This document shows positions 1,261-17,588 of a stretch of 17,588 nucleotides of DNA, piece after piece. The stretch is from a virus. Its lineage: Duplodnaviria > Heunggongvirae > Uroviricota > Caudoviricetes. Under the pieces are notes generated by a model. The model ran no database searches and was not told the origin of the DNA. It saw only the letters and a program-made list of their open reading frames with translations. The position numbers and the translations under genes were made by a program. Each line of letters opens with the position of its first letter. Positions within the stretch are counted from its first letter, which is position 1. Location: the IMG/VR virus record IMGVR_UViG_2734482774_000007, positions 1-17,588 of that record; one strand, 5' to 3'.

Positions 1261-1275
1261 CTTTAAAAATTTTAA

Positions 1276-1307
1276 AGTAGGGTCAAAGACCCTACTAATT
1301 ATTTTTT
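1276..1307. terminator. Bidirectional rho-independent terminator between convergent int and herA
   Basis: Perfect 9-bp stem agtagggtc / gaccctact (1276-1284 / 1288-1296) with loop aaa, T-run aattatttttt on the + strand and ttaaaattttt on the - strand. Confidence 0.7.
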
Positions 1308-3020
1308 CCATATATTGCAATAGCCTGGAGAATCAGATTCTGGTGGATATATTGGCTTATCTATCTGGATGGTCATAGGAATAGGGAAGTCAACCCCTAC
1401 AAGAGCAACTTCACCTTGTTTGAGACTTGGTAGAAAAGATGCTGCAGATTTATCAATTTCACCGCATGCACGCTCAACGACTTCTCGATCTCGGTCGTTT
1501 GTTAAGCGATGAACCAATAAGGTTCCAATTTGACTAAGCACACCTTCAGTGATATCTCTGGGTCTTTGAGTTGTTAAGCATATATTAAGGCCATATTTCC
1601 TGCCTTCTTTTGCAATCATCTCAAAAGCGTCAAGTTTAATTGCATGATCTTCAGAACCAACCCGTTTGCCAAGGAAGTTATGGGCTTCATCAACAATAAC
1701 TAACAGCGGTCTTGTTCTGAATTTTTCAAGCCTAGCTAAAGTTAAAAGTTTTCTGCCGATTACATTGGCTAAAATTTCTCTAGCATAAAACTCATAGCTA
1801 ACATCACTTAGGCATAACCTTAGGACTCGTTTATCAGATTGTAAAAAAGTTTCTAATATTTCACCTAGTGTGGATATATCCTCGTTACTATTAAAAACAG
1901 ACCTTAACGAGTTGGCATACGTTACTGCTTGAATTCTGGTTAACAAAGATGAGCAATAGCTTAAGTCTTGAGTTGCAGCGTTTCCCCAAGTATTATCTCC
2001 ATTATCGTAACAACATTCTTGTACAATCTGTTTTATAAGTTTTGTTATATCAAATGGTTGTGATGGATTATCAACAAGTTTAGAGTTGTCTCCAGTATTC
2101 ATTGCGCGTCGATAATCTGTTTTAGGTTGATTGATTTTTTTTAAAATACCATCGGTTGCTATTCTAGGTTCTAAAGCTACTAATCTAAGGCTTTTTATCG
2201 CTTCTTTTAGCTTAGGACCCTGTACTTTTCCAGAAGGATCGAACATGGCAATAAAGTCTGACTCAACAAAGTCGGTAGGTGGAATTCTAAATTCTAAAGA
2301 ATTTATGTTTTTATTTATTGGGGCACCTAAATGGTAATGTAAACAATAATCAGATTTAAACGATCTATACTCACTGGTTGCATCAATTATTATAGTTTTA
2401 GAGTTTTCGTAATTCGAACACTCTTCAATTAACTTGGAAGTTGTCCAACTTTTTCCACCGCCTGTAGCTCCTAAGATAGCACAATGACGACCGAAGAGTT
2501 TATCAGGTTCAACAGTTACTATACTTGTTGCCCCTCCAGATATAATGCCTAATACAATACCTATTCTTTCTTCCTCGTTATCTTTAATTCCTTTATTAAT
2601 TAATTCTGGTATTAAAGAAATAAAATCTAAGGGAGCAGAATAAACTCGATCTCCTAATCGAGGATATGATTTGATTCCTGAATCAATTCTAAAATTTGAA
2701 GGATCAATAGTTCCAAGAAGTTGTATAATGCCGATAGCATCAACTTTGAAGTTTCCTTGAGACCCGACAGATATTTCACCTCTATCTCGCTCTGGTAATT
2801 TAACCTCTATTAAACGGCCAAGAACAATAGATTGTTGTCCTTCTATTAATAATATTTCACCAACTTCTCCTTTTCCATATCTACAACCTTCTATATATGT
2901 TCCGCTGAGTTCCCCTGCATAGATTAAATTTGCTCTAACTGTTTGAGCAAAAATTGATGAGACTACTCCAACCTTAAGGTCGCCCCTCAAAATACCAAGC
3001 TGTAGTGTTGTATTAATCAT
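1299..3020 (-). CDS. herA: HerA-like ATPase, second gene of a SIR2-HerA anti-phage module
   Basis: 573-aa ORF. Walker A GATGGGKSWT and Walker B LLVIVDEAHNF. Start ATG overlaps the upstream gene's stop (ATGA at 3017-3020). Markedly AT-rich codon usage compared with flanking genes. Confidence 0.8.
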   Translation of the reverse strand: MINTTLQLGILRGDLKVGVVSSIFAQTVRANLIYAGELSGTYIEGCRYGKGEVGEILLIEGQQSIVLGRLIEVKLPERDRGEISVGSQGNFKVDAIGIIQLLGTIDPSNFRIDSGIKSYPRLGDRVYSAPLDFISLIPELINKGIKDNEEERIGIVLGIISGGATSIVTVEPDKLFGRHCAILGATGGGKSWTTSKLIEECSNYENSKTIIIDATSEYRSFKSDYCLHYHLGAPINKNINSLEFRIPPTDFVESDFIAMFDPSGKVQGPKLKEAIKSLRLVALEPRIATDGILKKINQPKTDYRRAMNTGDNSKLVDNPSQPFDITKLIKQIVQECCYDNGDNTWGNAATQDLSYCSSLLTRIQAVTYANSLRSVFNSNEDISTLGEILETFLQSDKRVLRLCLSDVSYEFYAREILANVIGRKLLTLARLEKFRTRPLLVIVDEAHNFLGKRVGSEDHAIKLDAFEMIAKEGRKYGLNICLTTQRPRDITEGVLSQIGTLLVHRLTNDRDREVVERACGEIDKSAASFLPSLKQGEVALVGVDFPIPMTIQIDKPIYPPESDSPGYCNIWKK

Positions 3021-4315
3021 AATTGATTGTTAACTCCTACTTGTTTTATTACCTTAGCCAACTGTTCTGCTGGGGTTAATGCTTTAAGATTGGGAACTAA
3101 TTTAACAAAATCACTGAAAGATGCATTTATGAAGTGAATGTCATAACCTGATAGTGAGAGTTGTTTTAGTAAATCCCAATATTTACTAGAACCGTCCCCC
3201 CCTTTATTCCGAATATGAGTTGCACATTTGAAATCTACTATAATCAACCTCATGCTTGGATTGGATTTTATTGCTGAGTAAATTGGTTCAGAAAGATGGT
3301 CATCATTGAAACCAAATCCAGATATAACTAAACAGTTATTTCTTTTTCTCAAGAAATCTAACAATCTTGAAAGTAATTCTAAGTGAGGTTGAATAAAGGC
3401 TTGCTGATATTTACCTTTCGCTGGATATATTAGACATGCGTTTGTTGCTGTTGGTTGGCTGGATTCATATATTTGCCCATCCTTTCTTATCCAACTTACA
3501 GAACCGTGGAGTTTAAATAACTGGAATACGCCCTCTACAAACTCATGCTCGTTTTCATCTCTTTTAACAACATCGTAGTTAAAATATTTACCATCGAATC
3601 TGCGAACTCCTGTATATGAAAGACCATCAACTACCATCATTCCTAATTCAGAAGCAGCTGTTTCAAAGGCTAAATCATAGTTAGTTGTGAAAACTTTTAG
3701 TCTAGGATCTCTGACTCTCCTCCTCCCCATTTTTTGTAATAAATTGATGTAAGCTGAAAGATCACAGTTGCCATCATCAATAAATGAGCGACATTTGTCT
3801 AAAATAATTGTTTTAACTTTATTTAAAAAATTCAACACTTCTTCATCATCATGAAATGCTAAATATGCTTCACAATTAGAAAGAAAGTGTTCTATGTTAG
3901 GATACTCTCGCTCTTTATATTTTACTTTATCACAAACAATTTGAGCATCAGGTTTTAATTGACCATCCTCGTTTATAGAAGATTCACTCCACATTGCACA
4001 CTTCCAGAGATCCCACATGCTTGGTCCTCCAACGTCCCCAAGCGAAGTACCACTCCCAGCGAAGAATGCAAGATTTGGGAATTGTAATGATTTTAGTAAT
4101 AGTTCGTTTATATATGCCTGATTGTCTTTCAACTCCTTCTTTTCACCATCAGTAAGAGATTGTGCTGGAGAAATAGAATCTCCTGACTCTTCTAAACTTT
4201 CATTCGTTATGTAGTCTCGCCAATAAATAAACGATTTACTATCTAATGCTTTCCAGTCGTTACTACCGGGTTTTAAAAATGAGATGTATCCGTCCGGATT
4301 TGTAGTCATAATCAT
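3017..4315 (-). CDS. sir2: SIR2-family (SIR2_2-type) putative NADase, first gene of the SIR2-HerA module
   Basis: 432-aa ORF. Rossmann-like FFAGSGTS, signature VFTTNYDLAFE (catalytic Asn) and FKLHGSVSW (catalytic His). Translationally coupled to herA. AT-rich. Confidence 0.8.
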   Translation of the reverse strand: MIMTTNPDGYISFLKPGSNDWKALDSKSFIYWRDYITNESLEESGDSISPAQSLTDGEKKELKDNQAYINELLLKSLQFPNLAFFAGSGTSLGDVGGPSMWDLWKCAMWSESSINEDGQLKPDAQIVCDKVKYKEREYPNIEHFLSNCEAYLAFHDDEEVLNFLNKVKTIILDKCRSFIDDGNCDLSAYINLLQKMGRRRVRDPRLKVFTTNYDLAFETAASELGMMVVDGLSYTGVRRFDGKYFNYDVVKRDENEHEFVEGVFQLFKLHGSVSWIRKDGQIYESSQPTATNACLIYPAKGKYQQAFIQPHLELLSRLLDFLRKRNNCLVISGFGFNDDHLSEPIYSAIKSNPSMRLIIVDFKCATHIRNKGGDGSSKYWDLLKQLSLSGYDIHFINASFSDFVKLVPNLKALTPAEQLAKVIKQVGVNNQL

Positions 4316-4872
4316 TATCCATTGATGTCATTAAGAGTTTGTTCCCAATAATTTACTACACCACGGCTGGAAGAAAAAGTAATCACAATCACTATCTTTG
4401 ACTACAGTGCGCACAATTATCTTCCCGCCACGCTTGCCCACCTTTAATACACGTGCATGTTTGATCTGAGGTCTTACGATATCTTGTACAGGTAGAGGTT
4501 ACAAGAGTGAGAACCATGCTCACTAAGGATGACAAATCTATAAATATTACCCGTAGCGCCGCTCAGTTTACGTGTGCTGCATCGATACACTGCAGTTCTT
4601 GAATCATTGCGGAGATTTCAGCAACTGCCAGCCAGTATCTCGTCAATCATTGTCACCGCCTGCGCGGCTGAGTTTGCTATTTTCTCCCTTAGCGCGAGCA
4701 GCCCCGCCCGCCTGCCCGCTTCGCTTAACAGACTGGTTTTCATGCACCCCGTAAATCGTCTCAGAAGCCACCACACAAGGGCTTTCGCGTCAAAAATGGC
4801 GCATGAGACTCATGCGTTTTCATGCGCCATAGATATGCACTCATACGCTCTCAGGCCAGCCAGGGAAAAGGC

Positions 4873-4899
4873 GTAAAAAATCCCGGTACTGGACCGGGA
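4873..4899 (-). terminator. Rho-independent terminator downstream of the sid-psu-ogr operon
   Basis: 7-bp stem tcccggt / accggga (4881-4887 / 4893-4899) with loop actgg, followed on the - strand by TTTTTTAC (4873-4880). Lies 22 nt past the ogr-like stop. Confidence 0.65.
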
Positions 4900-4921
4900 C
4901 TTCGTGGTCGTATTTTGCTAA

Positions 4922-5194
4922 TCAGACAGGAATTTGCTGACGGTTTGACAGCTTTGACGCGGAGCCATAGCGATTGAGAGTTTGCTGTTGTTTTTCCGGT
5001 ATTTTTGCTTTGTCTGATTCCTGTTCATTGCACCGAGGCTTCATAATTATCGTATCCACGCTTTCCAGTGCGGTAAATGTGCAGGAACATTCCAGATTCT
5101 GGCACTGATACCATGAGCGTTTAACCGACGGAGCTTCATAGGCGCTGGTTCTGGCGTGAGCGACCGCGCCACATTCAGGACACTTCAGGGCCAT
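4922..5194 (-). CDS. Ogr/Delta-family zinc-finger late transcription activator
   Basis: MALKCPECGAVAHARTSAYEAPSVKRSWYQCQNLECSCTFTALESV matches the P2 Ogr C-x2-C...C-x4-C zinc-finger pattern. ATG at 5192-5194 is preceded by AAGGAG with a 9-nt spacer, 1 nt after the psu stop. The ORF track's longer start at 5296 would overlap psu. Confidence 0.75.
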   Translation of the reverse strand: MALKCPECGAVAHARTSAYEAPSVKRSWYQCQNLECSCTFTALESVDTIIMKPRCNEQESDKAKIPEKQQQTLNRYGSASKLSNRQQIPV

Positions 5195-5195
5195 A

Positions 5196-5750
5196 TCAGC
5201 ACACTCCTTTTTCATTAAGTCGGTTAAGGCGGGCCAGGAAAACTTTATGTTGTGCCGGGGTGAAACTGGCTGAAGCATCAGCGCGCATTGATGCATCCAC
5301 CGTTAATCCGGTTTCGTCGATAATGCTCTTATATGCTGCTGAAATTACCGGAGTACGGACTTCCGTTTGTCGGGCTACAGCGGTTCGTAATATTTTCATT
5401 GCCGCCTCAAGCCCGTATGGTGCACAAAGAAAAGGAGCCAGAGCGTCAGTGAGTGCATCACCATGCTCGCTCATGAAGTTTTCAGTTGCGCTTGTAACAC
5501 AGCTTTCCAGCACAATCTGGTGAGCATAAAGACCATCCCGGGCGGCACAGTTAATCTGCCATTCGAGGAGTGCAAGACGCTCACGAAGATCCTCAAGTTG
5601 GCTGGCATATGCTGCGGGTTTTTCTTCAGTATCCAGCAAAGCAGCCAGACGAAGCTGGCTGGTACTTTGCACATTACGTAGTGTCAGCCAGCTTTTTATT
5701 GCCGCGCGGTAATCGTTGAGAGCTTCCTGAGTAATGGTTCCGGTATTCAT
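5196..5750 (-). CDS. psu: Psu-like polarity suppression protein
   Basis: 184 aa, close to P4 Psu size. Recalled similarity to P4 Psu (ALTDALAP..., ...FTPAQHKVF...). Start overlaps the sid-like stop (ATGA at 5747-5750). SD GAGAAGGA upstream. Confidence 0.7.
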   Translation of the reverse strand: MNTGTITQEALNDYRAAIKSWLTLRNVQSTSQLRLAALLDTEEKPAAYASQLEDLRERLALLEWQINCAARDGLYAHQIVLESCVTSATENFMSEHGDALTDALAPFLCAPYGLEAAMKILRTAVARQTEVRTPVISAAYKSIIDETGLTVDASMRADASASFTPAQHKVFLARLNRLNEKGVC

Positions 5751-6499
5751 TCCTTCTCGCCCCCTTTAGCCATGTCACGCTGTTTAAGCATCCGGGAACG
5801 TGCTGCAGGGCTGGGTGATTGTCTGGCATCCTGTATGGCTTTATCGTCCGCATAAATGCTGATCCCCGGCAGGGCAATATCATCCGTTGAAGATACGTTA
5901 CAGAACAGTGCCGGAGTGGTGAGTTGCTCGCTGATAAATTGCTTCAGCACACTTTCGGGGTCGTTTACGGTATGAACTACACCGATAACAGAAGATGCGC
6001 TTCGGCCCAGAGTCATTTTCAGCAGTCCAAGGATCTGAATAAGTTTCTGGCCGTGTTCCTTCATAAACTCATTCCAGAGCCACACTGCATGAGTTTCAAT
6101 CAGGTGATTATGTTCGCTGATGTAGCGGTTTGCAGCATCCGCAGTTTTCCATGGCAGGAATTCATTTTCTGCAGCCTGAGCAGCCAGCAAATCTTCGAAC
6201 TCATCTAGTGTTTCGCGTCCGAGGGCGATTTCTGCCCGCAGTTTTTTCATTCGTGGCGTCATATTCCCCTGATTCTCACGAAACAGGTTTCGCCATTCAT
6301 CATTAAGCGCCTGCGTCTCCGTTTTTGTATCTTCCTGACGTTTACGGATAGTTTCAGTCATTGCAGCAGCTTCGGTTTGTTTTCGCCGTTCTTCCTGCCA
6401 GACAGCTTTTGCTGCCTTAACTTTTTCCACCGCTTCGCGAATTTTCGGCGGGAGGGTGGGGGTAATGTTTGCATCAGAGATCTGGTTAACAGTTGTCAT
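5747..6499 (-). CDS. Sid-like capsid size-determination (external scaffold) protein, putative
   Basis: 250 aa from the ATG at 6499, which follows a GGAG SD; the track's start at 6532 is a TTG. Helical, charged sequence; position immediately upstream of psu as in the P4 late operon. Assignment is positional and compositional only. Confidence 0.5.
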   Translation of the reverse strand: MTTVNQISDANITPTLPPKIREAVEKVKAAKAVWQEERRKQTEAAAMTETIRKRQEDTKTETQALNDEWRNLFRENQGNMTPRMKKLRAEIALGRETLDEFEDLLAAQAAENEFLPWKTADAANRYISEHNHLIETHAVWLWNEFMKEHGQKLIQILGLLKMTLGRSASSVIGVVHTVNDPESVLKQFISEQLTTPALFCNVSSTDDIALPGISIYADDKAIQDARQSPSPAARSRMLKQRDMAKGGEKE

Positions 6500-6571
6500 G
6501 GCTGCTCCGGTAGTGTTTTGTTGTTGTGTCAATTGTGCCGGGGTCCATACAAGCGCACTACCGAGGAGGAT

Positions 6572-6589
6572 TGTGTCAGTGACTGAACA
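6572..6589 (-). promoter_or_regulatory. Candidate Ogr/Delta-dependent late promoter element (TGT-N12-ACA) upstream of sid
   Basis: TGTgtcagtgactgaACA, centred about 80 bp upstream of the sid ATG. This spacing suits a site centred near -55 with a short leader, as in P2/P4 late promoters. Confidence 0.45.
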
Positions 6590-6665
6590 ATGACCTTGTT
6601 CTGGCTAGCCAGAGAAAGGTGTCATGTCTGATCTACACGCTTCCTTTAATACATACTATTCACCA

Positions 6666-6757
6666 CTGTTCACTTCAATAAAAATATAGTAAATACATGT
6701 GGTTAAGTGGTGTAGTGTTTTAATTAAAGTGATCATCTACTGTTCATGACTGTTCAC
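6666..6757 (+). repeat. Three direct copies of CTGTTCA(C/T) in the divergent control region; the last two overlap a second TGT-N12-ACA (6741-6758)
   Basis: ctgttcac at 6666-6673, ctgttcat at 6740-6747, ctgttcac at 6750-6757. TGTtcatgactgttcACA at 6741-6758. Confidence 0.35.
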
Positions 6758-7404
6758 AGAGATAAAATTAAACATATATTTCTTTTTCATATAAGTCGCG
6801 ATATTTATTTCAGTTTATTACTGGATCTTTTCTCCTCACCAATATTCACCAGTATTCAATACATATTCTATGTAAAGAATAAAAGATGTCTTATATCTGT
6901 TTGATAATTGAACATTCAACCTCCCTGCACTCAGTTGCATTTCAGGAAAATATTCATAAAAATGAATTTGTCTGATGTTCATTAAACACATTCGGATACA
7001 TGCGGAAGTAAGATGGTAATTTAATTTCTTTAATCATCGGATTTATTGATACATATGGTGAGCTGTTTATTTTTGGCCGTTTTTGGCTCTTTTATTAATC
7101 AGGTGTTGTCTTAGTGCTTATGATGTAAAGCCCTGAATGATATGGGCTGGTTCAGATTTGAGCTGTGATCCTGCCTAGTGTAATAGACTTTTTTATTATT
7201 GATGCTCCTTATTATATTCCATAAAGGAATTGTTTGTTTTTGTTCGTTTCATACGGTTTTTAGCTGTTTTATTTTTTGAGAAATCAACATTTCACACAAA
7301 ATAAATAAAGCATGCGCGAGCCGCTTATATAAACATAATAAGGAGCTACCTGAATCCGCATGGAATTGCCCGGACTGTTGTAAACATATTAGAGAGGTAG
7401 CCAG

Positions 7405-7665
7405 ATGAATAGTATTTCCGTTTCCACCCCGGCACCAGCTGCTCCGGTGCTCCCGGTTCCGGCTCAGCAGGAGCGCTTCATACGATTACCTGAAGTGATG
7501 CACCTTTGCGGGCTATCCCGTTCAACCATCTACGACCTTATCAGCCGCGATGCCTTCCCGCAGCAGATATCCCTGGGTGGAAAAAATGTGGCCTGGGTAC
7601 AGTCGGAGGTCAGTGCATGGATGGCGGCGCGAATTGCTGCCCGCGAGCAAGGAGGCCATGCGTGA
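7405..7665 (+). CDS. alpA: AlpA/Vis-family phage transcriptional regulator (excisionase-like HTH)
   Basis: 86 aa. [47 protein letters not shown] fits the AlpA family HTH pattern. SD GAGAGG 7 nt upstream. Sits where P4 carries vis. Confidence 0.8.
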
Positions 7666-7759
7666 AACTTGCTTTGCAGTCTCATCTCCTTTTTTCTGGC
7701 TTGCGTCCTGATATCTTTTCCAGGTATAGTTTTCCCGCTGCCGCAAAATCGGCTGCCGG

Positions 7760-8007
7760 GCGTAGGAACCCGAGTTACTTATTGGCGACACCAGACGCGC
7801 CGTGCGTCTTTTTTTACGTCGTTGCTCAGGCACACCCATTTTTCGGGCTGCGGTGCTTATACCTTAGCCCCTTTCAGATAATGGTGGTCCGGGCGGGGCA
7901 GCCTTCGGGCTGGCCGGTTTCCAATAAGGCCGGTATTCCTACCCCCGTTCGGGTCACCACCCATGAGCGTAGGAACTCCGGTGGTGGCATTTACCGCTAC
8001 TTATTGG
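7760..8007 (+). promoter_or_regulatory. P4-type RNA immunity region: seqA-like (7760-7785), seqB/CI-like (7921-7942), seqC-like (7967-8007)
   Basis: A and C share the identical 10-mers gcgtaggaac and tacttattgg. B (ccaataaggccggtattcctac) carries the reverse complements ccaataag and ttcctac, so B can pair with either A or C. The region also holds several GC stems, including a UUCG-loop hairpin ggcagccttcgggctg near 7897. Confidence 0.45.
7793..7815 (+). terminator. Rho-independent terminator directly after the seqA-like element
   Basis: Stem agacgc / gcgtct (7793-7798 / 7804-7809) with loop gccgt, followed by a 7-T run to 7815. Confidence 0.6.
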
Positions 8008-8209
8008 AGGTTGCCCTTATGGCTACGATCCTCGCCCCGTCACATCCTCAATTTATATTTGTTTTTGCCGCCGTTCGTCGTGCAGAACGTAAACCACGTA
8101 TCAGTATGCTGCGTATCATCGCCAGCAATGAGCATCATGCACGTCTTTCACTGGTCCATGAGTATGTGCTTTGTCTTGCTGCTCGCCTGCCTGTCCGGGA
8201 GGTGATCTA

Positions 8210-8434
8210 ATGAATCACGCCGCAATCTCTTATGACGATATTCTCCGCCTGAAGCATCTTCGTAACGTGGGAGAGTTTGTCACTGGAATGGCTGTTCTTC
8301 AGGATTGCTACGAAAAACCTGCCAGTGCTCAATGTGAACAACTGGTTTCCCTGATTTATCTGATGACAGAGCAGCTTGATGGCGTGGTACAGCGTTGCCA
8401 GGATGACCTCATGAACATGGAGGTGGTGCAATGA
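8210..8434 (+). CDS. Hypothetical small protein in the satellite left operon
   Basis: 74 aa from the ATG at 8210, which follows SD GGGAGG with a 7-nt spacer. Stop overlaps the next ORF's start (ATGA at 8431-8434). Confidence 0.55.
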
Positions 8435-8754
8435 AATCACGCACTCTTTCCCTTTCACTTCGGGTAGCGTTGTATCGCCGCGCGGTAGCCTGCGCCTGGT
8501 TGAGTGCCTGCTATCAGCAAAACCGCCATCTGCAGCTCACTCTGGATGAAATTGAAACCGCTATTGCCCGTGAGCTTGAAGGATTTTATCTGCGACAGCA
8601 CGGGCAAACAAAAGGCATGGAAATCGCCTGCGCCCTGCTTTCAGACCTGATGGAATACGGCCCTCTAATGTCCTGTCCCGCACTCTCCCAGCTCGGAATA
8701 GCCGTAATGGATGAGTTATGCGTCCGTCACATCAAAAAGCCGGTTTTACACTGA
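8431..8754 (+). CDS. Hypothetical protein in the satellite left operon, immediately upstream of the primase
   Basis: 107-aa ORF, translationally coupled to the upstream ORF and ending 14 nt before the primase start. Confidence 0.55.
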
Positions 8755-8768
8755 GGGAGAACTGCGTC

Positions 8769-11102
8769 ATGTCAGGAATGAAAGTCAGTCAGGCCGTGAA
8801 GGCTGCCCGCGGTCACTGGGCTCAGATTCTGCCAGCGCTGGGCGTGAATATATTGAAAAATCGCCATCAGCCTTGCCCGGTCTGTGGCGGTAAAGATCGT
8901 TTTCGCTTCGACGATCAGGAAGGACGCGGAACATGGTTCTGCAATCAGTGCGGAGCCGGGGATGGTTTAGCGCTTGTCACCAGGGCACTGAATGTGGATA
9001 TCAGTGAAGCAGCTGACAGGATACATGGACTGACACATGATCTGTCTATAGTTAATTCCGAGGTCAGGACGTTAACCGCCGATACCGATAGCGGGAAAGA
9101 TGCAGCGGCAGCACTTGCCGCGCGACTGCTGCAAGCCTCGCGTGAATCTGCCGGAAACACTTATCTTACACATAAAGGTTTCCCGGAGCATATTTGCCAT
9201 GAGCTGACTTCAGCTCATAAGGCCGGTGGTGTGATGTTCCGCCCCGGTGATTTGATCGTCCCACTCTATAACGCTGACGGGGAGCTGGTGAATATTCAGC
9301 TTATCAGTGGCAATGGTAGCAAGTGTTTTCTTAAAGGAGGTCAGGTTAAGGAGGCCTATCATCTGATAGAAGGGGGCGGGAGTTCTGTAAGAAGGATTTG
9401 GATTGCGGAAGGTTACGCCACGGCGCTTACCATTCATTATTTGACAGGAGAAGCCGTCATGGTGGCATTTTCGTCGGTCAACTTTCTTTCTCTGAGCAGC
9501 GTTGCCCATAATAAGTATCCTGGATATCAGTTAATTATTGCAGCGGACCGCGATCTGAATGGTTCAGGCCAGAACAGGGCTGAAACTGCTGCAAAAGCGA
9601 GTCAGTGTGACATTGTGCTGCCACCGGTTTTTGGTGACTGGAATGATGCGCTTACCCAATACGGAGAGGAATCCACCCGGAAGGCAATTCTTGAGGCTTT
9701 GAAGCCACATAACGCCAGTCCTTTCGACACAATGAGTGAAGCAGAATTCACAGCGATGAGTGTCAGCGAAAAAGCTCAGAGGGTTCGGGAGCATTACAGG
9801 GATGCACTGGCGGTTGATCCGAACGGGCAGCTTTTATCCCGCTACGAGTCTGGAGCGTGGAAAGTTATTTCTCAGTCAGATTTTGCCCGAGATGTCGCAG
9901 CCCTTTTCCAGCGCCTCGGGGCACCGTTTTCCTCAGGAAAAATTGCCTCACTGGTGGAAACATTAAAGTTAATTGTTCCGCAGCAGCAAAATCCGTCACG
10001 TCATCTGATTGGTTTTCGTAATGGCGTTCTCGATACGCGAACAGGGCTTTTTAGTCCGCACTGTAAAGAGAACTGGCTGCGTACCCTGTGTGAAGTCGAT
10101 TTCACGCCACCGGTAAAGGGGGAAACGCTTGAAACTCATGCCCCGGCATTCTGGCGTTGGTTGGACCGGGCCGCCGGACACAAGCCAGCAAAACGCGACA
10201 TTATTCTTGCAGCGTTATTTATGGTGCTGGCGAACCGTTATGACTGGCAGCTCTTTCTGGAAGTGACTGGCCCTGGTGGAAGTGGCAAAAGTATTCTGGC
10301 TGAAATTGCGACCATGCTTGCTGGAGAGGATAACGCCACCTCTGCGACCATTGAAACGCTGGAGTCCCCGCGAGAACGTGCGGCTCTGATAGGTTTTTCT
10401 CTTATTCGCCTGCCTGATCAGGAGAAGTGGAGCGGCGACGGCGCCGGGCTTAAGGCTATAACTGGTGGCGATGCAGTATCTGTGGACCCCAAATATCAGA
10501 ATGCTTATTCAACACATATTCCGGCGGTTATCCTGGCCGTAAATAATAATCCTATGCGCTTCACTGATCGCAGTGGTGGTGTGTCCCGCAGGAGAGTTAT
10601 TCTGCATTTTCCTGAGCAGATAGCACCGGAAGAACGCGATCCGCAGTTGAAAGATAAAATTGCACGAGAACTGGCTGTGATTGTTCGTCAGCTCATGCAG
10701 CGTTTCAGCGATCCGATGAGCGCCAGAACATTGCTTCAGTCGCAGCAGAATTCTGATGAGGCTCTCACCATCAAGCGTGATGCTGATCCAGCATTTGATT
10801 TTTGTGGCTACCTTGAGGCATTACCTGACACCAACGGCATGTTTATGGGGAACGCCAATATTGTCCCGCGCCAGCCACGTACGTACCTTTACCATGCCTA
10901 TCTCGTATACATGGAGGCTAATGGCTTTAAAAATACCCTTAGCCTGACAATGTTTGGCAAAGGGCTACCAGTTATGCTGAAGGAATACGGGCTAAATTAT
11001 GAGAAGCGGCGAACTAATCAGGGAATGCAGACTAACCTCACTTTAAAAGAGGAAAGTAATGCAGACTGGCTTCCCAAGTGTGATGAGCTAACAATCAAAT
11101 AA
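8769..11102 (+). CDS. P4 alpha-type primase-helicase
   Basis: 777 aa from the ATG at 8769 (SD GAGGGAGA 9 nt upstream); the track's 8718 start is non-ATG. Zinc-binding primase motif CPVCGGKDRFRFDD...CNQCG; Walker A GPGGSGKS in the C-terminal helicase part. Length equals that recalled for P4 alpha. Confidence 0.9.
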   Translation: MSGMKVSQAVKAARGHWAQILPALGVNILKNRHQPCPVCGGKDRFRFDDQEGRGTWFCNQCGAGDGLALVTRALNVDISEAADRIHGLTHDLSIVNSEVRTLTADTDSGKDAAAALAARLLQASRESAGNTYLTHKGFPEHICHELTSAHKAGGVMFRPGDLIVPLYNADGELVNIQLISGNGSKCFLKGGQVKEAYHLIEGGGSSVRRIWIAEGYATALTIHYLTGEAVMVAFSSVNFLSLSSVAHNKYPGYQLIIAADRDLNGSGQNRAETAAKASQCDIVLPPVFGDWNDALTQYGEESTRKAILEALKPHNASPFDTMSEAEFTAMSVSEKAQRVREHYRDALAVDPNGQLLSRYESGAWKVISQSDFARDVAALFQRLGAPFSSGKIASLVETLKLIVPQQQNPSRHLIGFRNGVLDTRTGLFSPHCKENWLRTLCEVDFTPPVKGETLETHAPAFWRWLDRAAGHKPAKRDIILAALFMVLANRYDWQLFLEVTGPGGSGKSILAEIATMLAGEDNATSATIETLESPRERAALIGFSLIRLPDQEKWSGDGAGLKAITGGDAVSVDPKYQNAYSTHIPAVILAVNNNPMRFTDRSGGVSRRRVILHFPEQIAPEERDPQLKDKIARELAVIVRQLMQRFSDPMSARTLLQSQQNSDEALTIKRDADPAFDFCGYLEALPDTNGMFMGNANIVPRQPRTYLYHAYLVYMEANGFKNTLSLTMFGKGLPVMLKEYGLNYEKRRTNQGMQTNLTLKEESNADWLPKCDELTIK

Positions 11103-11110
11103 TTACAACT

Positions 11111-11137
11111 AACCCGGCTGATGCCGGGTTTCTTATT
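11111..11137 (+). terminator. Rho-independent terminator after the primase gene
   Basis: 8-bp stem aacccggc / gccgggtt with loop tgat, followed by tcttatt. Confidence 0.6.
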
Positions 11138-11453
11138 GGAAACGTACGAATGTAGAGATAGCAGTTCACTCTTCACCTAACTGTTAATACATAACCAATT
11201 GATATATAAATTAAAAGTTGCAGAGTGAATAGTGTGCATGGTTTTGCGAAAAAAAAGTATTTTTTGTTGAGTCAAGTCCCGGTTTGGATCCGTTTAACGG
11301 AACCTAACTGGATTGACTATTTCTTCGATAATTTTTGGATAAATAATCAACAAAAATCAAAATGTGAACAGCGAATGGAGGGGGCACAAAAGGGGGCATA
11401 ATTGAATTAATTATTAATAAAATCCATTTTTTACAACAATTTAAATGAATATG

Positions 11454-11473
11454 CGAGTCCGGCCTTCGCACCA
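11454..11473 (+). repeat. attR: direct repeat of the 3' end of tRNA-Leu (leuX)
   Basis: cgagtccggccttcgcacca resembles the recalled leuX 3' end (T-loop end, T-stem, acceptor stem, CCA) with one G missing. Upstream sequence is not tRNA-like, so only the 3' core is duplicated. Confidence 0.6.
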
Positions 11474-11489
11474 CACCGTATGCAAATCG

Positions 11490-11513
11490 AGCCGCTCAAG
11501 AGCGGCTTTTTTT
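11490..11513 (+). terminator. Rho-independent terminator following the tRNA-3'-end repeat (displaced native tRNA terminator)
   Basis: Stem agccgctc / gagcggct with a short loop, followed by a 7-T run. Confidence 0.6.
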
Positions 11514-11697
11514 GTGTCTGAAATCCGTTAGTTACCTATCTTTCTCGCTATTTTAACTCTCTCAGGGCTAACCAATTCCAACCCATCGCAAACGAAAAAT
11601 GTTGGTACAGGCGTTGGTATTTTCGGTTCGACATTAATTTGTATTAGCTCAGTCCTGATCTGACAGCTATCTGCCAGATCAGGTTCGGATTAATACA

Positions 11698-12548
11698 TTA
11701 TATCTGCCCGCCTACACCTTTAAACTTCTCAATAAACGCGACGATCTTCTGGAAAACCGTCTGTTTTTTCGTCTTATATTGCGGATTTAACGGACTGAGT
11801 TTTGGCAATGTCTCGTTTAATTCCGTGCCATTTTCGGTGGCGTATTCGCGTTTTAAAGACGTGCGAATATAGCGTTTCGCCGCCTCTTCATTGAGATTTT
11901 CTTCTTTGATCAAGGCTTCTGCTTCACGTTGCTGTTCGCGTTGAGCAAAGGTAAAAAACGCGTCAATGATGCTGGCTTTATCCGGCAAATCATCCAGGTT
12001 CGTTTGCTGAATAAAATCGACCACCAGACCTTCTTTGGCACGGTTACCAAGGCTCGAACGAATTAAGCGCTTGACCTCTTCGGTCATTTCGCCCTTACCT
12101 TTGTTTTGTCTGTTGTGTTCGAAAATCAGTCCAAGGATATAATCCAGGTTTATTTCCTGAGACTTCAGCAAATCGACCTCAAAAACCACGTCATCCCAGT
12201 CGGTGGTTGATTTTTCTTTTTTGTCAGCTTCTTTCTCACGGCGCTGCCAGTCACGAATATCGTTATAGGCTGAACGATAATCCTGAATCTTGCGATCAGC
12301 AGGGAGACGAATTATTTGCAATTCAGCGAGCTTTTCATCATCCACATAATGTTCTGCTTTGAATTTTTCTACTGCAACAGGATCACTAAGATCGATTTGT
12401 TGCAGGGCTTTCAGCGTGGCAAATTCATCATAGTTTTGCAGGATGTTCTCGGCACGCAGGTATTCACCAAACAGTTTTACGAAGTCTTTCTTCTCTTTTT
12501 CACTTTCAATATTGGCAGGGTCAGGGAACCGTTGTTCCAGTTCTGAAA
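11698..12548 (-). pseudogene. Type I restriction enzyme R subunit (HsdR) C-terminal fragment
   Basis: The frame is open from about 12545 to the stop at 11698 (about 283 codons) with no plausible ATG/RBS at its 5' end. Helical sequence ([10 protein letters not shown]..., [43 protein letters not shown]) resembles the conserved HsdR C-terminal domain as recalled. No helicase or nuclease motifs are present. Confidence 0.5.
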
Positions 12549-12803
12549 CTAGATGAAGTAGCCTTTGGTTTTGATGGCATCGTCTTTAATGTCATCAGTT
12601 ATTACGCTGTCATCCAGTTTCGCATAACAGATACTGTCATCACCGGCTTCAATATAGCTGGAAAAATTTTCGCTGATAAAACGGTAGAAAAGCGCGCCCA
12701 GAACGTATTGCTTAAAGTCCCATCCATCGACCGAACCTCTGACATCGTTAGCAATTTGCCAGATCTGGCGATGAAGCTCCGCGCGCTGCTGAAGACTGGT
12801 CAT
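12549..12803 (-). pseudogene. Type I R-M methyltransferase (HsdM) N-terminal fragment, truncated after 84 codons
   Basis: LQQRAELHRQIWQIANDVRGSVDGWDFKQYVLGALFYRFISENF is a typical HsdM N-terminal domain signature. Good RBS (AAGGA, 6-nt spacer) at the ATG at 12803. The frame ends in TAG and continues in another frame into the HsdR-like sequence, with no methyltransferase motifs. Confidence 0.65.
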
Positions 12804-13109
12804 TTTTTATCCTTTGAATGTGTTTTTAACGTCGGCTTTTGCCGGGATTTTACCGGAAGTTTTTTGGTTTTTCAGATTTGTATGATGGTGAGGAGGGGAT
12901 TCAGCACCAGATTGTTAGTGCATCTTACTCAGCATTCACCGCTTGAGTCAGGAGGCTACTTTATATGTCCATCGTCCATCCGTAGGTGATCAGATAATTT
13001 ATTGCGAGTCACCTTCCCGATTTTCAATCTCATTATTTACCCAATCTTTCACCAGTGGATAATTCGTCTGCTACTAACGGCGAGTGTATTTTTTTACGGA
13101 TGAAAGATT

Positions 13110-13943
13110 ATGCAAACAGAAGCTGAAGTCTTAACCGATCATAACGAACTAATTTGCTCGACCAGTATTGAGCGTATCGTCACAGGACGTGATAGTGCAC
13201 TGAACCAGATAGCGGCGTTAATCCAAAAGCTTGATGATATCTCCAGCCTGACATCCAGTATTGGCGGTGATGTGGCTGGAACCTGGGCAATGCGTAATGG
13301 ATATGCCTTTGATTGCTGGCTGATGCAGCCAACCGACAAAGCGATGCCGGTGATCACCCGAAATATCGATCGCAGTATCTGGCGCGATCTCATGCTGAAG
13401 TCCGGGATGTTGACTCTGATGGATGCCGAAGCCCGCAGTCAGTGGGCAAAGAACCTGGAGGAGGGCGATCTCCCGGCGATTAGCGAAGCCAACATCCTGA
13501 GTACCTTTGAACAACTTCACCACAATAAGCAGGACGTTTTCGAACGTGGGATTATCAATGTATTTAAGGGATTAAGCTGGGACTACAAAACCAATAATCC
13601 CTGTTATTTCGGTAAGAAGATTATCGTTAACAATCTGGTGAAGCATGACAGATGGGGCTACAGCCTGAACTGGGGCTGGCGGCGAGATCAGCTTGCCGAT
13701 CTGGAACGGATGTTCTATCTGCTGGATGGGAAGACCATTCCCGATAACCGGCATGATGTTGCGATTCGGTTTATGGACTTCGTTAGTGCTCACCCGCATG
13801 AACAGGTATTTGATGACGATTTATTTGTCATCCGCTATTACCAGAAAGGCAGTGGGCATATCACTTTCAAGCGACTGGATCTGGTGGATAAGATGAATGA
13901 TATCGTGGCGAAGCACTTTCCGTCAGCGTTATCAGCAAAATGA
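13110..13943 (+). CDS. Hypothetical protein (277 aa) immediately upstream of the AbiE pair
   Basis: Long ORF with ordinary codon usage and no motif I can assign by eye. Ends 70 bp before the AbiEi-like start on the same strand. Confidence 0.6.
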   Translation: MQTEAEVLTDHNELICSTSIERIVTGRDSALNQIAALIQKLDDISSLTSSIGGDVAGTWAMRNGYAFDCWLMQPTDKAMPVITRNIDRSIWRDLMLKSGMLTLMDAEARSQWAKNLEEGDLPAISEANILSTFEQLHHNKQDVFERGIINVFKGLSWDYKTNNPCYFGKKIIVNNLVKHDRWGYSLNWGWRRDQLADLERMFYLLDGKTIPDNRHDVAIRFMDFVSAHPHEQVFDDDLFVIRYYQKGSGHITFKRLDLVDKMNDIVAKHFPSALSAK

Positions 13944-14012
13944 ATGTCGTATGTTTGCTATCTAAAATGTCGTATTTTTGCTACTCTTTATGCAATGACT
14001 CTGGAGGCGAAT

Positions 14013-14408
14013 ATGACGATAAAAGCACGCATTCAGTCACGACTGAAACGTTCTAAACGTTACGTATTCACTCGTGACGACTTTAAAGATATTGCAGGCT
14101 ACGATCAGGTTGGTCGGGTATTGCGCGAGCTTGTCAGGGAAGGGCAACTGTTGAAGGTTGGTTATGGCGTGTATACCAAAGCACGGCGGAACGGTATTAC
14201 AGGCAAGGTAATGCCAGCGGCTCCCGGAGGCTCTTCAGCGGTGATTGTCGAAACGCTGGAACGCCTGAAAGTACGCTATCGTTTTGCTGGCGCAACGCAG
14301 GCATACAATAGCGGTACTTCTACGCAGATCCCAGCTTCACCCGAGATAAAAACCCCCCGGCGTTTTAAACGCGTATTATCTGTAGGGAACAGCAGATTAA
14401 ATGGATGA
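14013..14408 (+). CDS. AbiEi-family antitoxin / transcriptional regulator (type IV TA, abortive infection)
   Basis: 131 aa from the ATG at 14013 (SD GGAGG, 5-nt spacer). N-terminal RYVFTRDDFKDIAGYDQVGRVLRELVREGQLLKVGYGVYTKA fits the AbiEi winged-helix pattern. Stop overlaps the AbiEii start by 8 nt. Confidence 0.7.
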   Translation: MTIKARIQSRLKRSKRYVFTRDDFKDIAGYDQVGRVLRELVREGQLLKVGYGVYTKARRNGITGKVMPAAPGGSSAVIVETLERLKVRYRFAGATQAYNSGTSTQIPASPEIKTPRRFKRVLSVGNSRLNG

Positions 14409-15348
14409 TTTAACCACTCTTTTTTCTGAAGTGGCTGACGCGCTTGGTATTGAGTCTGTCGCAATTGTGGAAAAAGATCACTATATCGTTGAGCTTTTGC
14501 AATTGCTTAAACCTCTGGTGTTCGATACTCATCAATTGGTATTTGCCGGAGGAACCGCTCTGGCAAAATCAGGTGTCGCACTTAATCGCATGTCGGAAGA
14601 TGTGGATATCAAACTGGTGCCTAAGGATGCATTTCAGGCACTTTCCCGCACTCAGCGAAAAAATACCCGTAAAGAAATTGTTCAGGCAGTTTCCAGTGCA
14701 ATAGCTTCATCGGGTGTGTTCAATTTTGATGATGATTACCCAAAAGTGACGCGGGATGAATATCGTTATAATGACATACCTGTTCGTTATCCACAGCGAG
14801 TAGTGCAGGCACCTTGTTTGCGTCCTTTTATCCGGCTGGAATTGATGGAAGCGAAGTTACTGGAGCCTTCTGAATTACGGGATATTCATTCACTGGTAAC
14901 AGGGATCACGGGAAAAGCGGCTATTGTTTCAGCGTTTCCATGCGCAACTATCATTAGCTCACAGGCAGAAAAGCTGGTGGCGATGTTACGTCGTACTGCG
15001 GCAGTTGTGCGAGATGTTGAGCGATTTGATGATGCATCGCTGGTACGTCATATCTACGATACAAACTGTATTGTTGAGACGAGTCATGTTGATATGAGTC
15101 TGCTCGTTGATTTTGTTCAACAAACTATTGAGCAGGACATTCAGCGTTACGGCAACCAGTACCCGCAGTTTTGCGCGTCTCCAGTTGATGAGCTAAAAAT
15201 GGGACTGGATGAGTTGGCGAACAATCCTCTCTACGAGATGCGCTATCAGCAGTTTGTTTCGCCAATGGTGTATGGAGAGCGAAAGATCACATGGGATGAG
15301 GCTTACTCCAGGTTTAGGAGCTTAGCGCTAGCCATCCTGAATGCTTGA
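14401..15348 (+). CDS. AbiEii-family nucleotidyltransferase toxin (type IV TA, abortive infection)
   Basis: 315 aa. Nucleotidyltransferase motif LVFAGGTALAKSGVALNRMSEDVDIKL (GG...S-E-D-x-D) near the N-terminus. Confidence 0.8.
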   Translation: MDDLTTLFSEVADALGIESVAIVEKDHYIVELLQLLKPLVFDTHQLVFAGGTALAKSGVALNRMSEDVDIKLVPKDAFQALSRTQRKNTRKEIVQAVSSAIASSGVFNFDDDYPKVTRDEYRYNDIPVRYPQRVVQAPCLRPFIRLELMEAKLLEPSELRDIHSLVTGITGKAAIVSAFPCATIISSQAEKLVAMLRRTAAVVRDVERFDDASLVRHIYDTNCIVETSHVDMSLLVDFVQQTIEQDIQRYGNQYPQFCASPVDELKMGLDELANNPLYEMRYQQFVSPMVYGERKITWDEAYSRFRSLALAILNA

Positions 15349-15385
15349 TATGCAGCATTGTCTTTACTTGAAATTCTGAAATTCT

Positions 15386-15571
15386 CTAAACCATAGAGAT
15401 GATTTTTATGATCCAGTCTTTCTCTTGTTGAGATAGTTCCAGTTTGCTCACTCGTGTTAAGAAGGTATTGATCACCTGAACATCCGAATTGGTGAGCCTA
15501 TTTAATAGAGCGGGTGGTATACCTTTACTAACAATCGCTTTGCGGTGACTTTCGTAGTTTTTATTACTCAT
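15386..15571 (-). CDS. Small hypothetical protein (61 aa)
   Basis: ATG at 15569-15571 preceded by GAGGA with a 6-nt spacer. AT-rich. No recognisable motif. Confidence 0.4.
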   Translation of the reverse strand: MSNKNYESHRKAIVSKGIPPALLNRLTNSDVQVINTFLTRVSKLELSQQEKDWIIKIISMV

Positions 15572-15636
15572 TGTTGATCCTCAAATATCATTGTATGGCG
15601 GCATTGATCGTTTCCAGCAACCTTTACTTACTCACT

Positions 15637-15813
15637 TCAAACTGCATCCTCGTAGACTGTTCCACTACAATAATCGAAAAGGCGTGGATGTCCATTCAGG
15701 TATCCCGCTAATACGTATAGCAATAACAATGGTTTATGCGGTGCGCGCTGTTCACCCTTATGCCAGATTTTTATATTGGCAATTGCCTGCTGTAGCGATT
15801 TACTGGAAGCCAT
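15637..15813 (-). CDS. Small hypothetical protein (about 58 aa from the internal ATG)
   Basis: The track ORF starts at a TTG (15870). The internal ATG at 15811-15813 (MASSKSLQQ...) is preceded by AGGGA with a 5-nt spacer. Could be a fragment. Confidence 0.3.
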   Translation of the reverse strand: MASSKSLQQAIANIKIWHKGEQRAPHKPLLLLYVLAGYLNGHPRLFDYCSGTVYEDAV

Positions 15814-15949
15814 TGATATCCCTGGCAGTGAAATAATTGCGATCATGCTCGCAAATTTTCTGCTGTTCAAGCCTGCAAGTGAAGATATATTACTTTGATC
15901 TCATTTGTTTTTTTGCTGCTTGTTCTGAGAACGTATAAGGACATTCTCT

Positions 15950-16600
15950 ATGAATAAACTCCCCGATCATCTTCCGCGGCGGTATATCATCGAAGCTATT
16001 CATTTATGGGATGCGGGAGAAACTCATCAGTTCCAGCCTGCACGGTTGTATGAAATTGAATATCATGGCCGACGTTACCCCTCGAAGGCGATTGCTGGCA
16101 TCGCAGCGACATTGATGACGGGGACGCAATTTACCCCTGCGGATTTCACCGGCGGAATAAAATCTAAATGTGTCAAGCTACTCATAGAGCAGGGATTTCA
16201 TATTCATCAGGATAAAGCCGCTGCGGCTCCCATAGCCGACGTTCTGTTCCCGGATGAGCTGCCGTCGCAGGGGACCTACGTTGAAGGTGCGGCGATAAAG
16301 GTGACAGTAAACCGCTATGAACGCGATAAAAAGGCCCGAGATAAAGCGGTCGAACATCATGGATGCCAATGCAACGTATGCGGCGTTGATCTGGTGAAGA
16401 TCTATGGTGATATCGCTGAAGGCTTTATCCATGTGCATCACCTGGTGCCGCTTTCAGCCATTAAAGAGGATTACCAGCTGGATCCAGTTAATGATTTGCT
16501 TCCTGTGTGCCCTAATTGCCATGCGATGCTGCACCGACGCAAACCACCGTTTACGCCGGAGCAGTTAAAAGCGCTAATGGATGCGAATAAATCAAATTAA
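15950..16600 (+). CDS. HNH endonuclease family protein with an uncharacterised N-terminal domain
   Basis: 216 aa. C-terminal HNH/zinc-binding motif CQCNVCG...HVHHLVPLS...NDLLPVCPNCHAMLH. SD AAGGA upstream. Stop is 7 bp from the convergent nanS stop. Confidence 0.8.
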   Translation: MNKLPDHLPRRYIIEAIHLWDAGETHQFQPARLYEIEYHGRRYPSKAIAGIAATLMTGTQFTPADFTGGIKSKCVKLLIEQGFHIHQDKAAAAPIADVLFPDELPSQGTYVEGAAIKVTVNRYERDKKARDKAVEHHGCQCNVCGVDLVKIYGDIAEGFIHVHHLVPLSAIKEDYQLDPVNDLLPVCPNCHAMLHRRKPPFTPEQLKALMDANKSN

Positions 16601-16607
16601 TGAACGC

Positions 16608-17588
16608 TCACCTTTCGCGCCAAAACTGCAAAATTGCTTCTACAAACCTGTCAGAAATAATCCCCCGACGGGCTGCCGCGCTGAAATGACTGCTTCGCAG
16701 TGCCGTCGTCCAGTTCTCCGGTGACCGGTACGCTGAACCGTAATATCCCATGATTAAATCGTCCGGGTCTTCATCAGGCGCGTTCGTCAGTCCTCTTTCA
16801 CCTTGTTGCTGGAAGTCGACGAAAATAATATTAGCTAAAACATTATTTTGATAATTGCCATAAATAGCTTCATACGCATGAGGGAAATTTTCTTTCCAGT
16901 ACCAGGTGGTATCGCCGCAAAACCACGGCGCGTCAGTAATTTTATTAAGCTGAGAATGGTATTGTTTTAGATCCCTACGAAAGGCTTCAACCATATGATT
17001 AAAGTGTTGAGGGTGTGACGAGTAGTCACAGGTCATTAAGTCAAATTCGCCTTGCATCCAGCATACGCCGAGGAATTTGTTCTGCGGATTTTTTGCCAGT
17101 GCGGCTCGCGTTCTGCTGACTAAATCCTGGTATAGCGGAGTATCCGTTCCCCAACGACAAGCATCATGGCTGGCTCCGTGCCGTTCTGAATATGTCCCTT
17201 CGCTGCCTGCGATAAAAGCCGAGCCGCCACGACAACATGGAACGATGAGAACCCCTGCATTATCAGGAATGAAGGGCAGTAATTTCCGTGCAATATGCAG
17301 TGCCTGGCCAACGGTGCCGTACTGTGTTTGATGATTCGTTGCCAGAGGATGGTGATAACCCTGCATATCCTGAACATCGTGTGGGCAGTGAGTCAGTGGA
17401 ATAATGTCGTTAAAGTGACATGACGGGCCTCCGGGATGCGTATGCGCAAATCTTGCTAATTGTTTAATTCTGGGATGAGGCGCATCTTCCCTGTCCGGTA
17501 ATGGCAGTCCTTCGCCATACGCCATGGCATTAGACTGACCAGCAACGGTAAGAACATAGTAATAATCGGGCGATATTATTGCGTCCAT
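16608..17588 (-). CDS. nanS: Sialate O-acetylesterase NanS/YjhS (SGNH-type hydrolase)
   Basis: 326-aa ORF starting with an ATG exactly at the window end. Recognised from recalled E. coli YjhS/NanS (MDAIISPDYYYVLTVAGQSNAMAYGEGLPLPD...FWRER). Higher GC than the cargo, consistent with a core gene. Confidence 0.8.
   Translation of the reverse strand: MDAIISPDYYYVLTVAGQSNAMAYGEGLPLPDREDAPHPRIKQLARFAHTHPGGPSCHFNDIIPLTHCPHDVQDMQGYHHPLATNHQTQYGTVGQALHIARKLLPFIPDNAGVLIVPCCRGGSAFIAGSEGTYSERHGASHDACRWGTDTPLYQDLVSRTRAALAKNPQNKFLGVCWMQGEFDLMTCDYSSHPQHFNHMVEAFRRDLKQYHSQLNKITDAPWFCGDTTWYWKENFPHAYEAIYGNYQNNVLANIIFVDFQQQGERGLTNAPDEDPDDLIMGYYGSAYRSPENWTTALRSSHFSAAARRGIISDRFVEAILQFWRER

Follow-up and report, generated by a model that had tools for sequence, protein, structure and literature searches.

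Two truncated hsd genes on the minus strand

The window, that is, the whole stretch of 17,588 nucleotides analysed here (positions 1 to 17,588 of the IMG/VR virus record IMGVR_UViG_2734482774_000007), carries parts of two type I restriction-modification genes on its minus strand between positions 12803 and 11698. The first is an hsdM stump at 12549..12803 (−), which opens with an ATG at 12803 and comprises 84 codons of the HsdM N-terminal domain followed by a TAG stop codon at 12551-12549. Its 84-residue product matches the Pfam family HsdM_N (E = 1.9e-9) over positions 1-49 of the 135 in the profile as well as positions 1-84 of the NCBIfam model TIGR00497 (hsdM), and it equals residues 3-86 of EcoR124II HsdM (PDB 7bst_D) at 83 of 84 positions (E = 5e-52). 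Compared with hsdM of E. coli A35, which is intact, four synonymous changes and the junction stop at codon 85 are the only differences. The region upstream of hsdM at 12804..12880 (−) is retained whole and is ~98% identical to the sequence located 5′ of the intact A35 gene. It harbors a Shine-Dalgarno-like AAGGA 6 nt 5′ of the ATG and a weak sigma-70-like element—CTGAAA-17-TAAAAT at 12875-12847, detected by a promoter scan and representing a consensus match only. Since promoter region, ribosome-binding site, and start codon are all retained, an 84-residue N-terminal HsdM fragment ending at the junction TAG may still be produced. This peptide, which corresponds to less than half of the N-terminal domain, is expected to be inert.

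The second stump, located at 11698..12549 (−), consists of hsdR codons 756-1038, encoding the helical C-terminal domain of the restriction subunit, and a TAA stop codon at 11700-11698. Its frame is offset by 2 nt from that of the hsdM stump and runs from the junction to the TAA without any stop or frameshift. The 283 hsdR-derived codons match residues 756-1038 of EcoR124I HsdR (PDB 2w00_A) over their full length (E = 4e-175), the residue-for-residue alignment showing 10 substitutions, and the Pfam domain EcoR124_C is detected with an E-value of 4.5e-68. In comparison with A35 hsdR, five synonymous and no non-synonymous differences are found in the 283 codons. The initial annotation, which had proposed an intact-looking start and ribosome-binding site leading into 84 HsdM codons and, in a different frame, about 283 codons resembling the C-terminal domain of HsdR, is thus borne out for both fragments, the matches being far too strong to be due to chance. 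The first codon at which the hsdR frame could start, GTG at 12345, lies 69 codons past the junction and opens an ORF of 215 aa; no Shine-Dalgarno motif was seen ahead of this GTG when the sequence was read. Given the frame offset and a GTG start that lies 69 codons in and has no ribosome-binding site, translation of the hsdR stump is unlikely, and the HsdR C-terminal coding sequence is therefore probably transcribed only by read-through and not translated. Directly after the hsdR stop codon lies an imperfect inverted repeat (11640..11697; repeat I2) with 27-nt arms that are 74% complementary. In A35, a collinear segment follows the intact hsdR; the repeat hence belongs to the native hsdR 3′ flank and may act as a terminator.

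A functional type IC system requires an HsdM with an N6-adenine methyltransferase domain (N6_Mtase), an HsdS (Methylase_S), and an HsdR combining a PD-(D/E)xK nuclease with an SF2 motor (HSDR_N, ResIII/DEAD, SWI2_SNF2). The domain search revealed no N6_Mtase, Methylase_S, ResIII/DEAD, or HSDR_N domain in either fragment, in agreement with the earlier remark that methyltransferase and helicase motifs as well as hsdS are missing. Codons 85-518 of hsdM are deleted, HsdR residues 1-755 are absent, EcoR124_C being the only HsdR domain detected, and the two stumps directly abut with no room for hsdS. Genes of these types are not found near the remnant either: those tabulated for a contig that matches the window at 100% identity include none, and Methylase_S is likewise missing from the genes tabulated for contigs with 100% identity to window positions 4549-17588. 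By descent, the locus nevertheless belongs to type IC, as shown by its identity to the EcoR124 subunits and its collinearity with an intact hsdM-hsdS-hsdR locus. The closest characterized relatives, EcoR124I and EcoR124II (type IC, plasmid R124; PDB 2w00 and 7bst), agree with the window at 83 of 84 HsdM positions and are collinear with it over HsdR 756-1038. In contrast to these plasmid-borne enzymes, the window keeps 84 of ~520 HsdM residues, 283 of 1038 HsdR residues, and no HsdS; its remnant is chromosomal, resides in the leuX island, and cannot work as a system.

In type I enzymes, HsdR is inactive without the HsdM2-HsdS core. The joint loss of methylase and nuclease would be safe for the cell because HsdR depends on this core. 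From the domains that are left, a carrier strain would be expected to lack both restriction and modification by the type IC system of the leuX island. For annotation purposes, the two short ORFs are to be treated as one pseudogenised type IC locus, and carriers are to be scored as having no restriction barrier from it.

The intact operon and the deletion junction

In E. coli A35 (L001), the locus comprises a divergent DUF4942 gene, hsdM (6789-8345; 518 aa), hsdS (8342-9616), which overlaps hsdM by 4 nt, a 121-nt spacer, hsdR (9738-12854; 1038 aa), and tRNA-Leu (leuX). The initial annotation had assumed an operon of the order hsdM-hsdS-(other)-hsdR. This order holds in A35, in AMSHJX01 (L002), and in a further E. 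coli allele (L004); the additional gene does not, for hsdS and hsdR are separated in all three by a spacer of ~120 nt containing no extra gene. The layout of AMSHJX01 resembles that of the window, a P4-like satellite at leuX being followed by intact hsdM-hsdS-hsdR, DUF4942/AbiE, and nanS. Intact leuX type IC loci, exemplified by A35 and AMSHJX01, share with the window the island, the divergent DUF4942 gene, 98-99% nucleotide identity, and a leuX gene or leuX-type att copy after hsdR, but they retain the 4.9 kb that the window is missing.

Alignment of the window to the A35 locus yields two collinear blocks that overlap by 2 nt in the window. The hsdM-side block is 98.2% identical and ends at L001 position 7042; the hsdR-side block is 99.3% identical and starts at L001 position 12001. 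That these two blocks of the intact locus have come to lie next to each other, sharing 2 nt, argues for one deletion, as had been suggested before. The sequence missing from the window amounts to 4,960 bp relative to A35 and to 4,892 bp relative to AMSHJX01, whose hsdS is shorter. No intact locus identical to the window on both flanks was found, so that the ancestral hsdS allele and the deletion length of 4,892-4,960 bp are approximate. The comparison with intact type I systems places both end points in the same locus, at hsdM codon 85 and hsdR codon 755, and the comparison with the related strains A35 and AMSHJX01 identifies what was lost as the rest of hsdM, all of hsdS, and most of hsdR. 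More precisely, hsdM codons 85-518, the whole of hsdS, the hsdS-hsdR spacer, and hsdR codons 1-754 were removed and, with them, the methyltransferase core of HsdM, all of HsdS, and the nuclease and motor domains of HsdR. The hsdR promoter, which is sited in the hsdS-hsdR spacer in the EcoR124 family, is lost as well.

The junction itself is a TA dinucleotide at 12550..12551 (−) common to hsdM codon 85 (TAC) and hsdR codon 755 (GTA). In a three-way comparison, ...TTCATC-TA-CCCAAG (hsdM) and ...GGCAG-TA-GTTTCAG (hsdR) give ...TTCATC-TA-GTTTCAG (window). The G at 12549, contributed by hsdR Val756, completes TAG after the TA of the hsdM Tyr85 codon TAC; the stop codon of the hsdM stump is therefore a product of the junction. 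The predicted DNA fold at the intact hsdM site is unremarkable with respect to hairpin formation (z = −0.75), and a repeat search returned no direct or inverted repeat involving the junction. A deletion mediated by an insertion sequence was considered and rejected, as the junction bears neither an IS end nor a target duplication. It also gives no convincing match to the ends of IS1 and IS5. The YTAR motif, the target of IS5, is present only once the junction has formed, the intact hsdM reading CTAC at this position.

Taken together, the region is read as the inactive remains of a chromosomal type IC (EcoR124-family) operon left behind by a single microhomology deletion of ~4.9 kb (probability about 0.92). 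According to this model, the ancestor would have possessed a functional hsdM-hsdS-hsdR operon, from which a single illegitimate recombination between the TA in hsdM codon 85 and the TA in hsdR codon 755 would have removed ~4.9 kb. Replication slippage and microhomology-mediated end joining are both compatible with the junction. With 2 nt, the microhomology is too short to establish a mechanism. The surviving codons of both genes combined differ from those of A35 by nine synonymous and no non-synonymous changes, the junction stop aside. With only synonymous differences separating the remnant from an intact allele, a single recent event rather than gradual decay is indicated, and the description of the locus as 'decayed' in the initial annotation overstates the damage, which is limited to one lesion. 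The substitutions are polymorphisms between alleles, handed down from a gene that was kept under purifying selection, and no damage has been added since the deletion.

Alternatively, the operon might have been lost in two steps, with a nonsense mutation of Tyr85 (TAC to TAG or TAA) arising first and the region being deleted later; had it been TAG, the microhomology would extend to the 3 nt TAG. Precedents for the first step exist. The L004 allele, which is widespread in E. coli, carries TAA instead of TAC at codon 85 in an otherwise intact operon (rest of hsdM, hsdS, and hsdR; 11 of the 24 contigs read), another allele (L055) has a TAG nonsense codon at the same position, and the hsdR partner site reads GTAG. 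However, comparison of the left flanks gives 66 differences in ~1,400 aligned positions between the window and the TAA lineage L004 and 25 between the window and AMSHJX01, which has TAC and is thus the nearer of the two. Moreover, an intact, TAG-bearing intermediate of the window's haplotype was not seen, and the single-step model is cheaper by one event. A two-step loss is therefore considered unlikely.

Stumps of EcoR124-family loci are common. In strain 203740 (L008), hsdM is accompanied by a partial hsdS cut by IS1, unlike the clean microhomology deletion of the window, and in strain ES4 (L003) the whole block from hsd to AbiE is missing. P1/P7-like plasmids (L037-L044) carry a 215-aa HsdR C-terminal ORF that adjoins an IS, stems from IS insertion, and has end points unlike those of the window. 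Two further loci (L047 and L048) represent independent hsdM-to-hsdR deletions in diverged alleles, again with different end points. Internal deletion from hsdM to hsdR thus seems to be a recurrent route of type IC loss, also in other bacteria.

The leuX island and the spread of the allele

leuX anchors the hypervariable E. coli defence hotspot 37, in which type IC systems are present in ~4% of isolates (PMC12707154). The window belongs to this hotspot: on one side lies leuX with an integrase-bearing element, on the other side nanS/nanM/nanC, and defence genes are found in between. This placement is based on synteny with A35, AMSHJX01, and ES4, on the copy of the leuX 3′ end at 11455-11474, and on the description of the hotspot (PMC12707154). 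From position 1 to ~11450, the window consists of a P4-like satellite encoding an integrase, an ATPase and SIR2 pair, Ogr/Delta, Psu, AlpA, and a primase; next to leuX, numerous E. coli genomes carry a counterpart of this satellite with >99% identity. The degenerate copy of the tRNA-Leu (leuX) 3′ end, GCGAGTCCGGCCTTCG-CACCA at 11455..11474, represents the far att site of the satellite and marks the border between satellite and hsd-bearing island; in A35, the real leuX occupies that position. A tRNA scan of the window found no tRNA gene. The copy is one base shorter than the tRNA gene and the corresponding copy in a contig of another context, L046 (extra C at 11469). Beyond the hsd scar follow DUF4942, a DUF6088/AbiEii pair, a fragment of a phosphorothioate-sensing restriction gene, an HNH/ScoMcrA_N gene, and nanS.

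Some features of the neighboring genes are worth recording in their own right. The ATPase and SIR2 pair (1299-4315, −) lies directly after the integrase, at the place where the AMSHJX01 satellite has Dsr2 (L002 2802-6419), which looks like a swap of defence cargo between related P4-like satellites. A DUF4942 gene transcribed divergently from hsdM is common to all leuX type IC loci inspected (L002, L004-L008, and L049; in A35 as a pseudogene). In the window (13110-13943, +), it persists despite the loss of hsd and may be an accessory or an independent defence gene. A second damaged defence gene is represented by a 58-aa fragment of an SBD domain (ScoMcrA type, phosphorothioate-sensing; 15637-15813, −) beside a separate 216-aa ScoMcrA_N/HNH ORF (15950-16600, +). 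At the SBD position, A35 and two other E. coli loci (L006 and L007) have a single intact SBD-HNH restriction gene of 290 aa together with McrBC.

The deletion allele is not confined to the window. The exact 84-aa product was found in 72 contigs and the exact 215-aa product of the GTG ORF in 54, NCBI E. coli assemblies being represented in both sets; in the databases, the two products are labelled HsdM N-terminal domain protein, hypothetical protein, or 'type I restriction endonuclease', and one carrier strain is the source of KHG98589.1 and KHG98587.1. A 13-kb stretch of the window is matched with 100% identity by a contig from Logan. Of 24 contigs read for the 215-aa product, 20 show the context of the window, and four show a different one, exemplified by L046. 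In L046 and the three similar contigs, the scar and the right-hand island are free of differences from 17588 down to ~11470, and homology to the window ends at 11446-11470. Instead of the P4-like satellite, these contigs carry a leuX element with CbtA/CbeA, RadC, an antirestriction gene, DUF932, and a GTPase. The deletion is hence a real, inherited allele that is independent of the element at leuX. As judged from the shared right-hand sequence, leuX elements appear to be exchanged without disturbing the adjacent island, the hsdM-hsdR scar having stayed untouched while its neighbor was later swapped. The loss of a restriction-modification system in this manner is ordinary; the locus provides a clean, datable example of defence-system loss in the leuX hotspot, in which one microhomology deletion took both methylase and nuclease functions.

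The junction was not found by megablast in any of 5,426 complete RefSeq E. coli genomes, in hundreds of which the HsdM and HsdR parts occur without ever being so joined, and it was likewise absent from the PLSDB plasmids. Its absence from complete genomes might suggest that the junction is an assembly chimera. The chance of this is negligible: the junction was recovered independently in 54-72 contigs, which stem from many samples and from different assemblers (Logan and NCBI), the 2-nt overlap offers no repeat at which a k-mer assembler could mis-join, and the scar occurs in two distinct flanking contexts at leuX (L045 and L046) and is therefore not an artefact of assembly.

A further view would hold that the remnant has been kept for a function, the HsdM fragment or a free HsdR C-terminal domain made from the GTG at 12345 acting as a decoy in subunit assembly and thereby interfering with type IC enzymes, whether resident or incoming. 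The C-terminal domain of EcoR124I HsdR is reported to participate in complex assembly, and plasmid-encoded type IC hsdM is common in E. coli (709 plasmid places). Furthermore, the hsdM stump has kept its promoter, ribosome-binding site, and reading frame, the hsdR stump is open over 283 codons, and the allele is present in two genomic contexts. However, the open frames are fully accounted for by a recent deletion, since the differences from A35 are inherited synonymous polymorphisms. No ribosome-binding site serves the hsdR stump, whose frame differs from that of the hsdM stump, the 84 HsdM residues cover positions 1-49 alone of the 135-position HsdM_N profile, and the allele is rare, with 0 occurrences in the 5,426 complete genomes. 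A selected decoy is thus very improbable, and a remnant devoid of function is preferred.

Lesions at hsdM codon 85

The exact 84-aa product occurs in four DNA contexts, namely the window type and those of L004, L006, and L007. As mentioned, L004 carries a point mutation. In L006, the sequence ...TCTA/ (the solidus marking the break) runs into an IS3 remnant and in L007 into an esterase gene; over 1,400 nt, the left flank of both is identical to that of strain 203740 (0 differences), in which hsdM is intact, with TAC at codon 85. Neither the L006 nor the L007 junction was recovered in searches of complete E. coli genomes and plasmids. Comparable lesions are found in other alleles. L048 (240-1837) harbors an independent remnant consisting of an 84-aa HsdM and a 435-aa HsdR part joined at TCTA/G in an allele that is 82% identical, and L047 (149-577) encodes an in-frame 142-aa fusion of HsdM(1-83) to the last 59 aa of HsdR, with the break 4 nt upstream. 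In E. coli, the hsdM junction of L049 lies one base later than ...TCTA, and two metagenomic hsdM junctions (L053 and L054) lie at TCTA/, L053 being a probable case. In total, at least six independent rearrangements fall at this site or within one base of it: the window type, L006, L007, and L049 in E. coli, and L048 and L054 in diverged alleles. Two nonsense mutations of the codon (L004 and L055) add to the series. All of these codon-85 cases were gathered through exact lookup of the 84-aa product or by choosing 84-aa matches, so that ascertainment is heavy.

This series raises the question whether hsdM codon 85 (...TTCATCTA/C; ...TAYTTCATCTA/Y) is a genuine site-specific hot spot of breakage or recombination. 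Breaks after ...TCTA or one base later in E. coli (window type, L006, L007, and L049), breaks after ...TCTA in other alleles (L048, L053, and L054), and the L047 break 4 nt upstream would speak for it. If true, the deletion in the window would be one of many events that begin at a site-specific lesion instead of a random slippage, the site would reflect nicking of a specific sequence, stalled replication, or a pseudo-site for a recombinase or relaxase in a widely conserved gene, and breakage at codon 85 would be a preferred route for the loss of type IC systems; it is also the sole reading of wider interest. Against this stands, above all, the way in which the cases were found, i.e., through the exact 84-aa product or chosen 84-aa matches. 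A junction after the TA of a tyrosine codon gives a stop half the time. Other lengths are as frequent as 84 aa among 120 short HsdM_N proteins listed—123 aa eight times, 113 aa six times, and 95 aa five times—in a list that holds short proteins alone and is ranked in favor of lengths near that of the query, and the break points among the matches listed are scattered over residues 70-140. In complete genomes, truncated hsdM genes end not at nt 254, as at the codon-85 site, but at nt 225, 213, and 156. The site shows neither a hairpin (z = −0.75) nor a repeat, and the partner sites are variable, TA being their sole common feature. A genuine hot spot consequently seems unlikely, and the recurrence of lesions at codon 85 is probably explained by biased sampling. 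When the metagenome and species-genome collections were scanned with ACCAAAGGCTACTTCATCTAD, all matches (28 of 28) were intact hsdM genes with the synonymous codon TAT, which the pattern admits because the code D includes T.

Two observations concern truncated HsdM proteins in general. The metagenomic HsdM fragment P0116 has a tail, ...LSLIHISEPTRR, that resembles a translated Nextera adapter. Some of the short 'truncated' proteins in the large protein collection are therefore likely to be sequencing artefacts, which add noise to any census of break points. The E. coli HsdM fragments P0036 and P0042 end in the same IS5-family terminus (tail EGANKQVISSQADSLIKISRIWA), after residues 76 and 80, respectively, and thus represent two separate insertions of one IS type, 4 codons apart and near the break point of the window.
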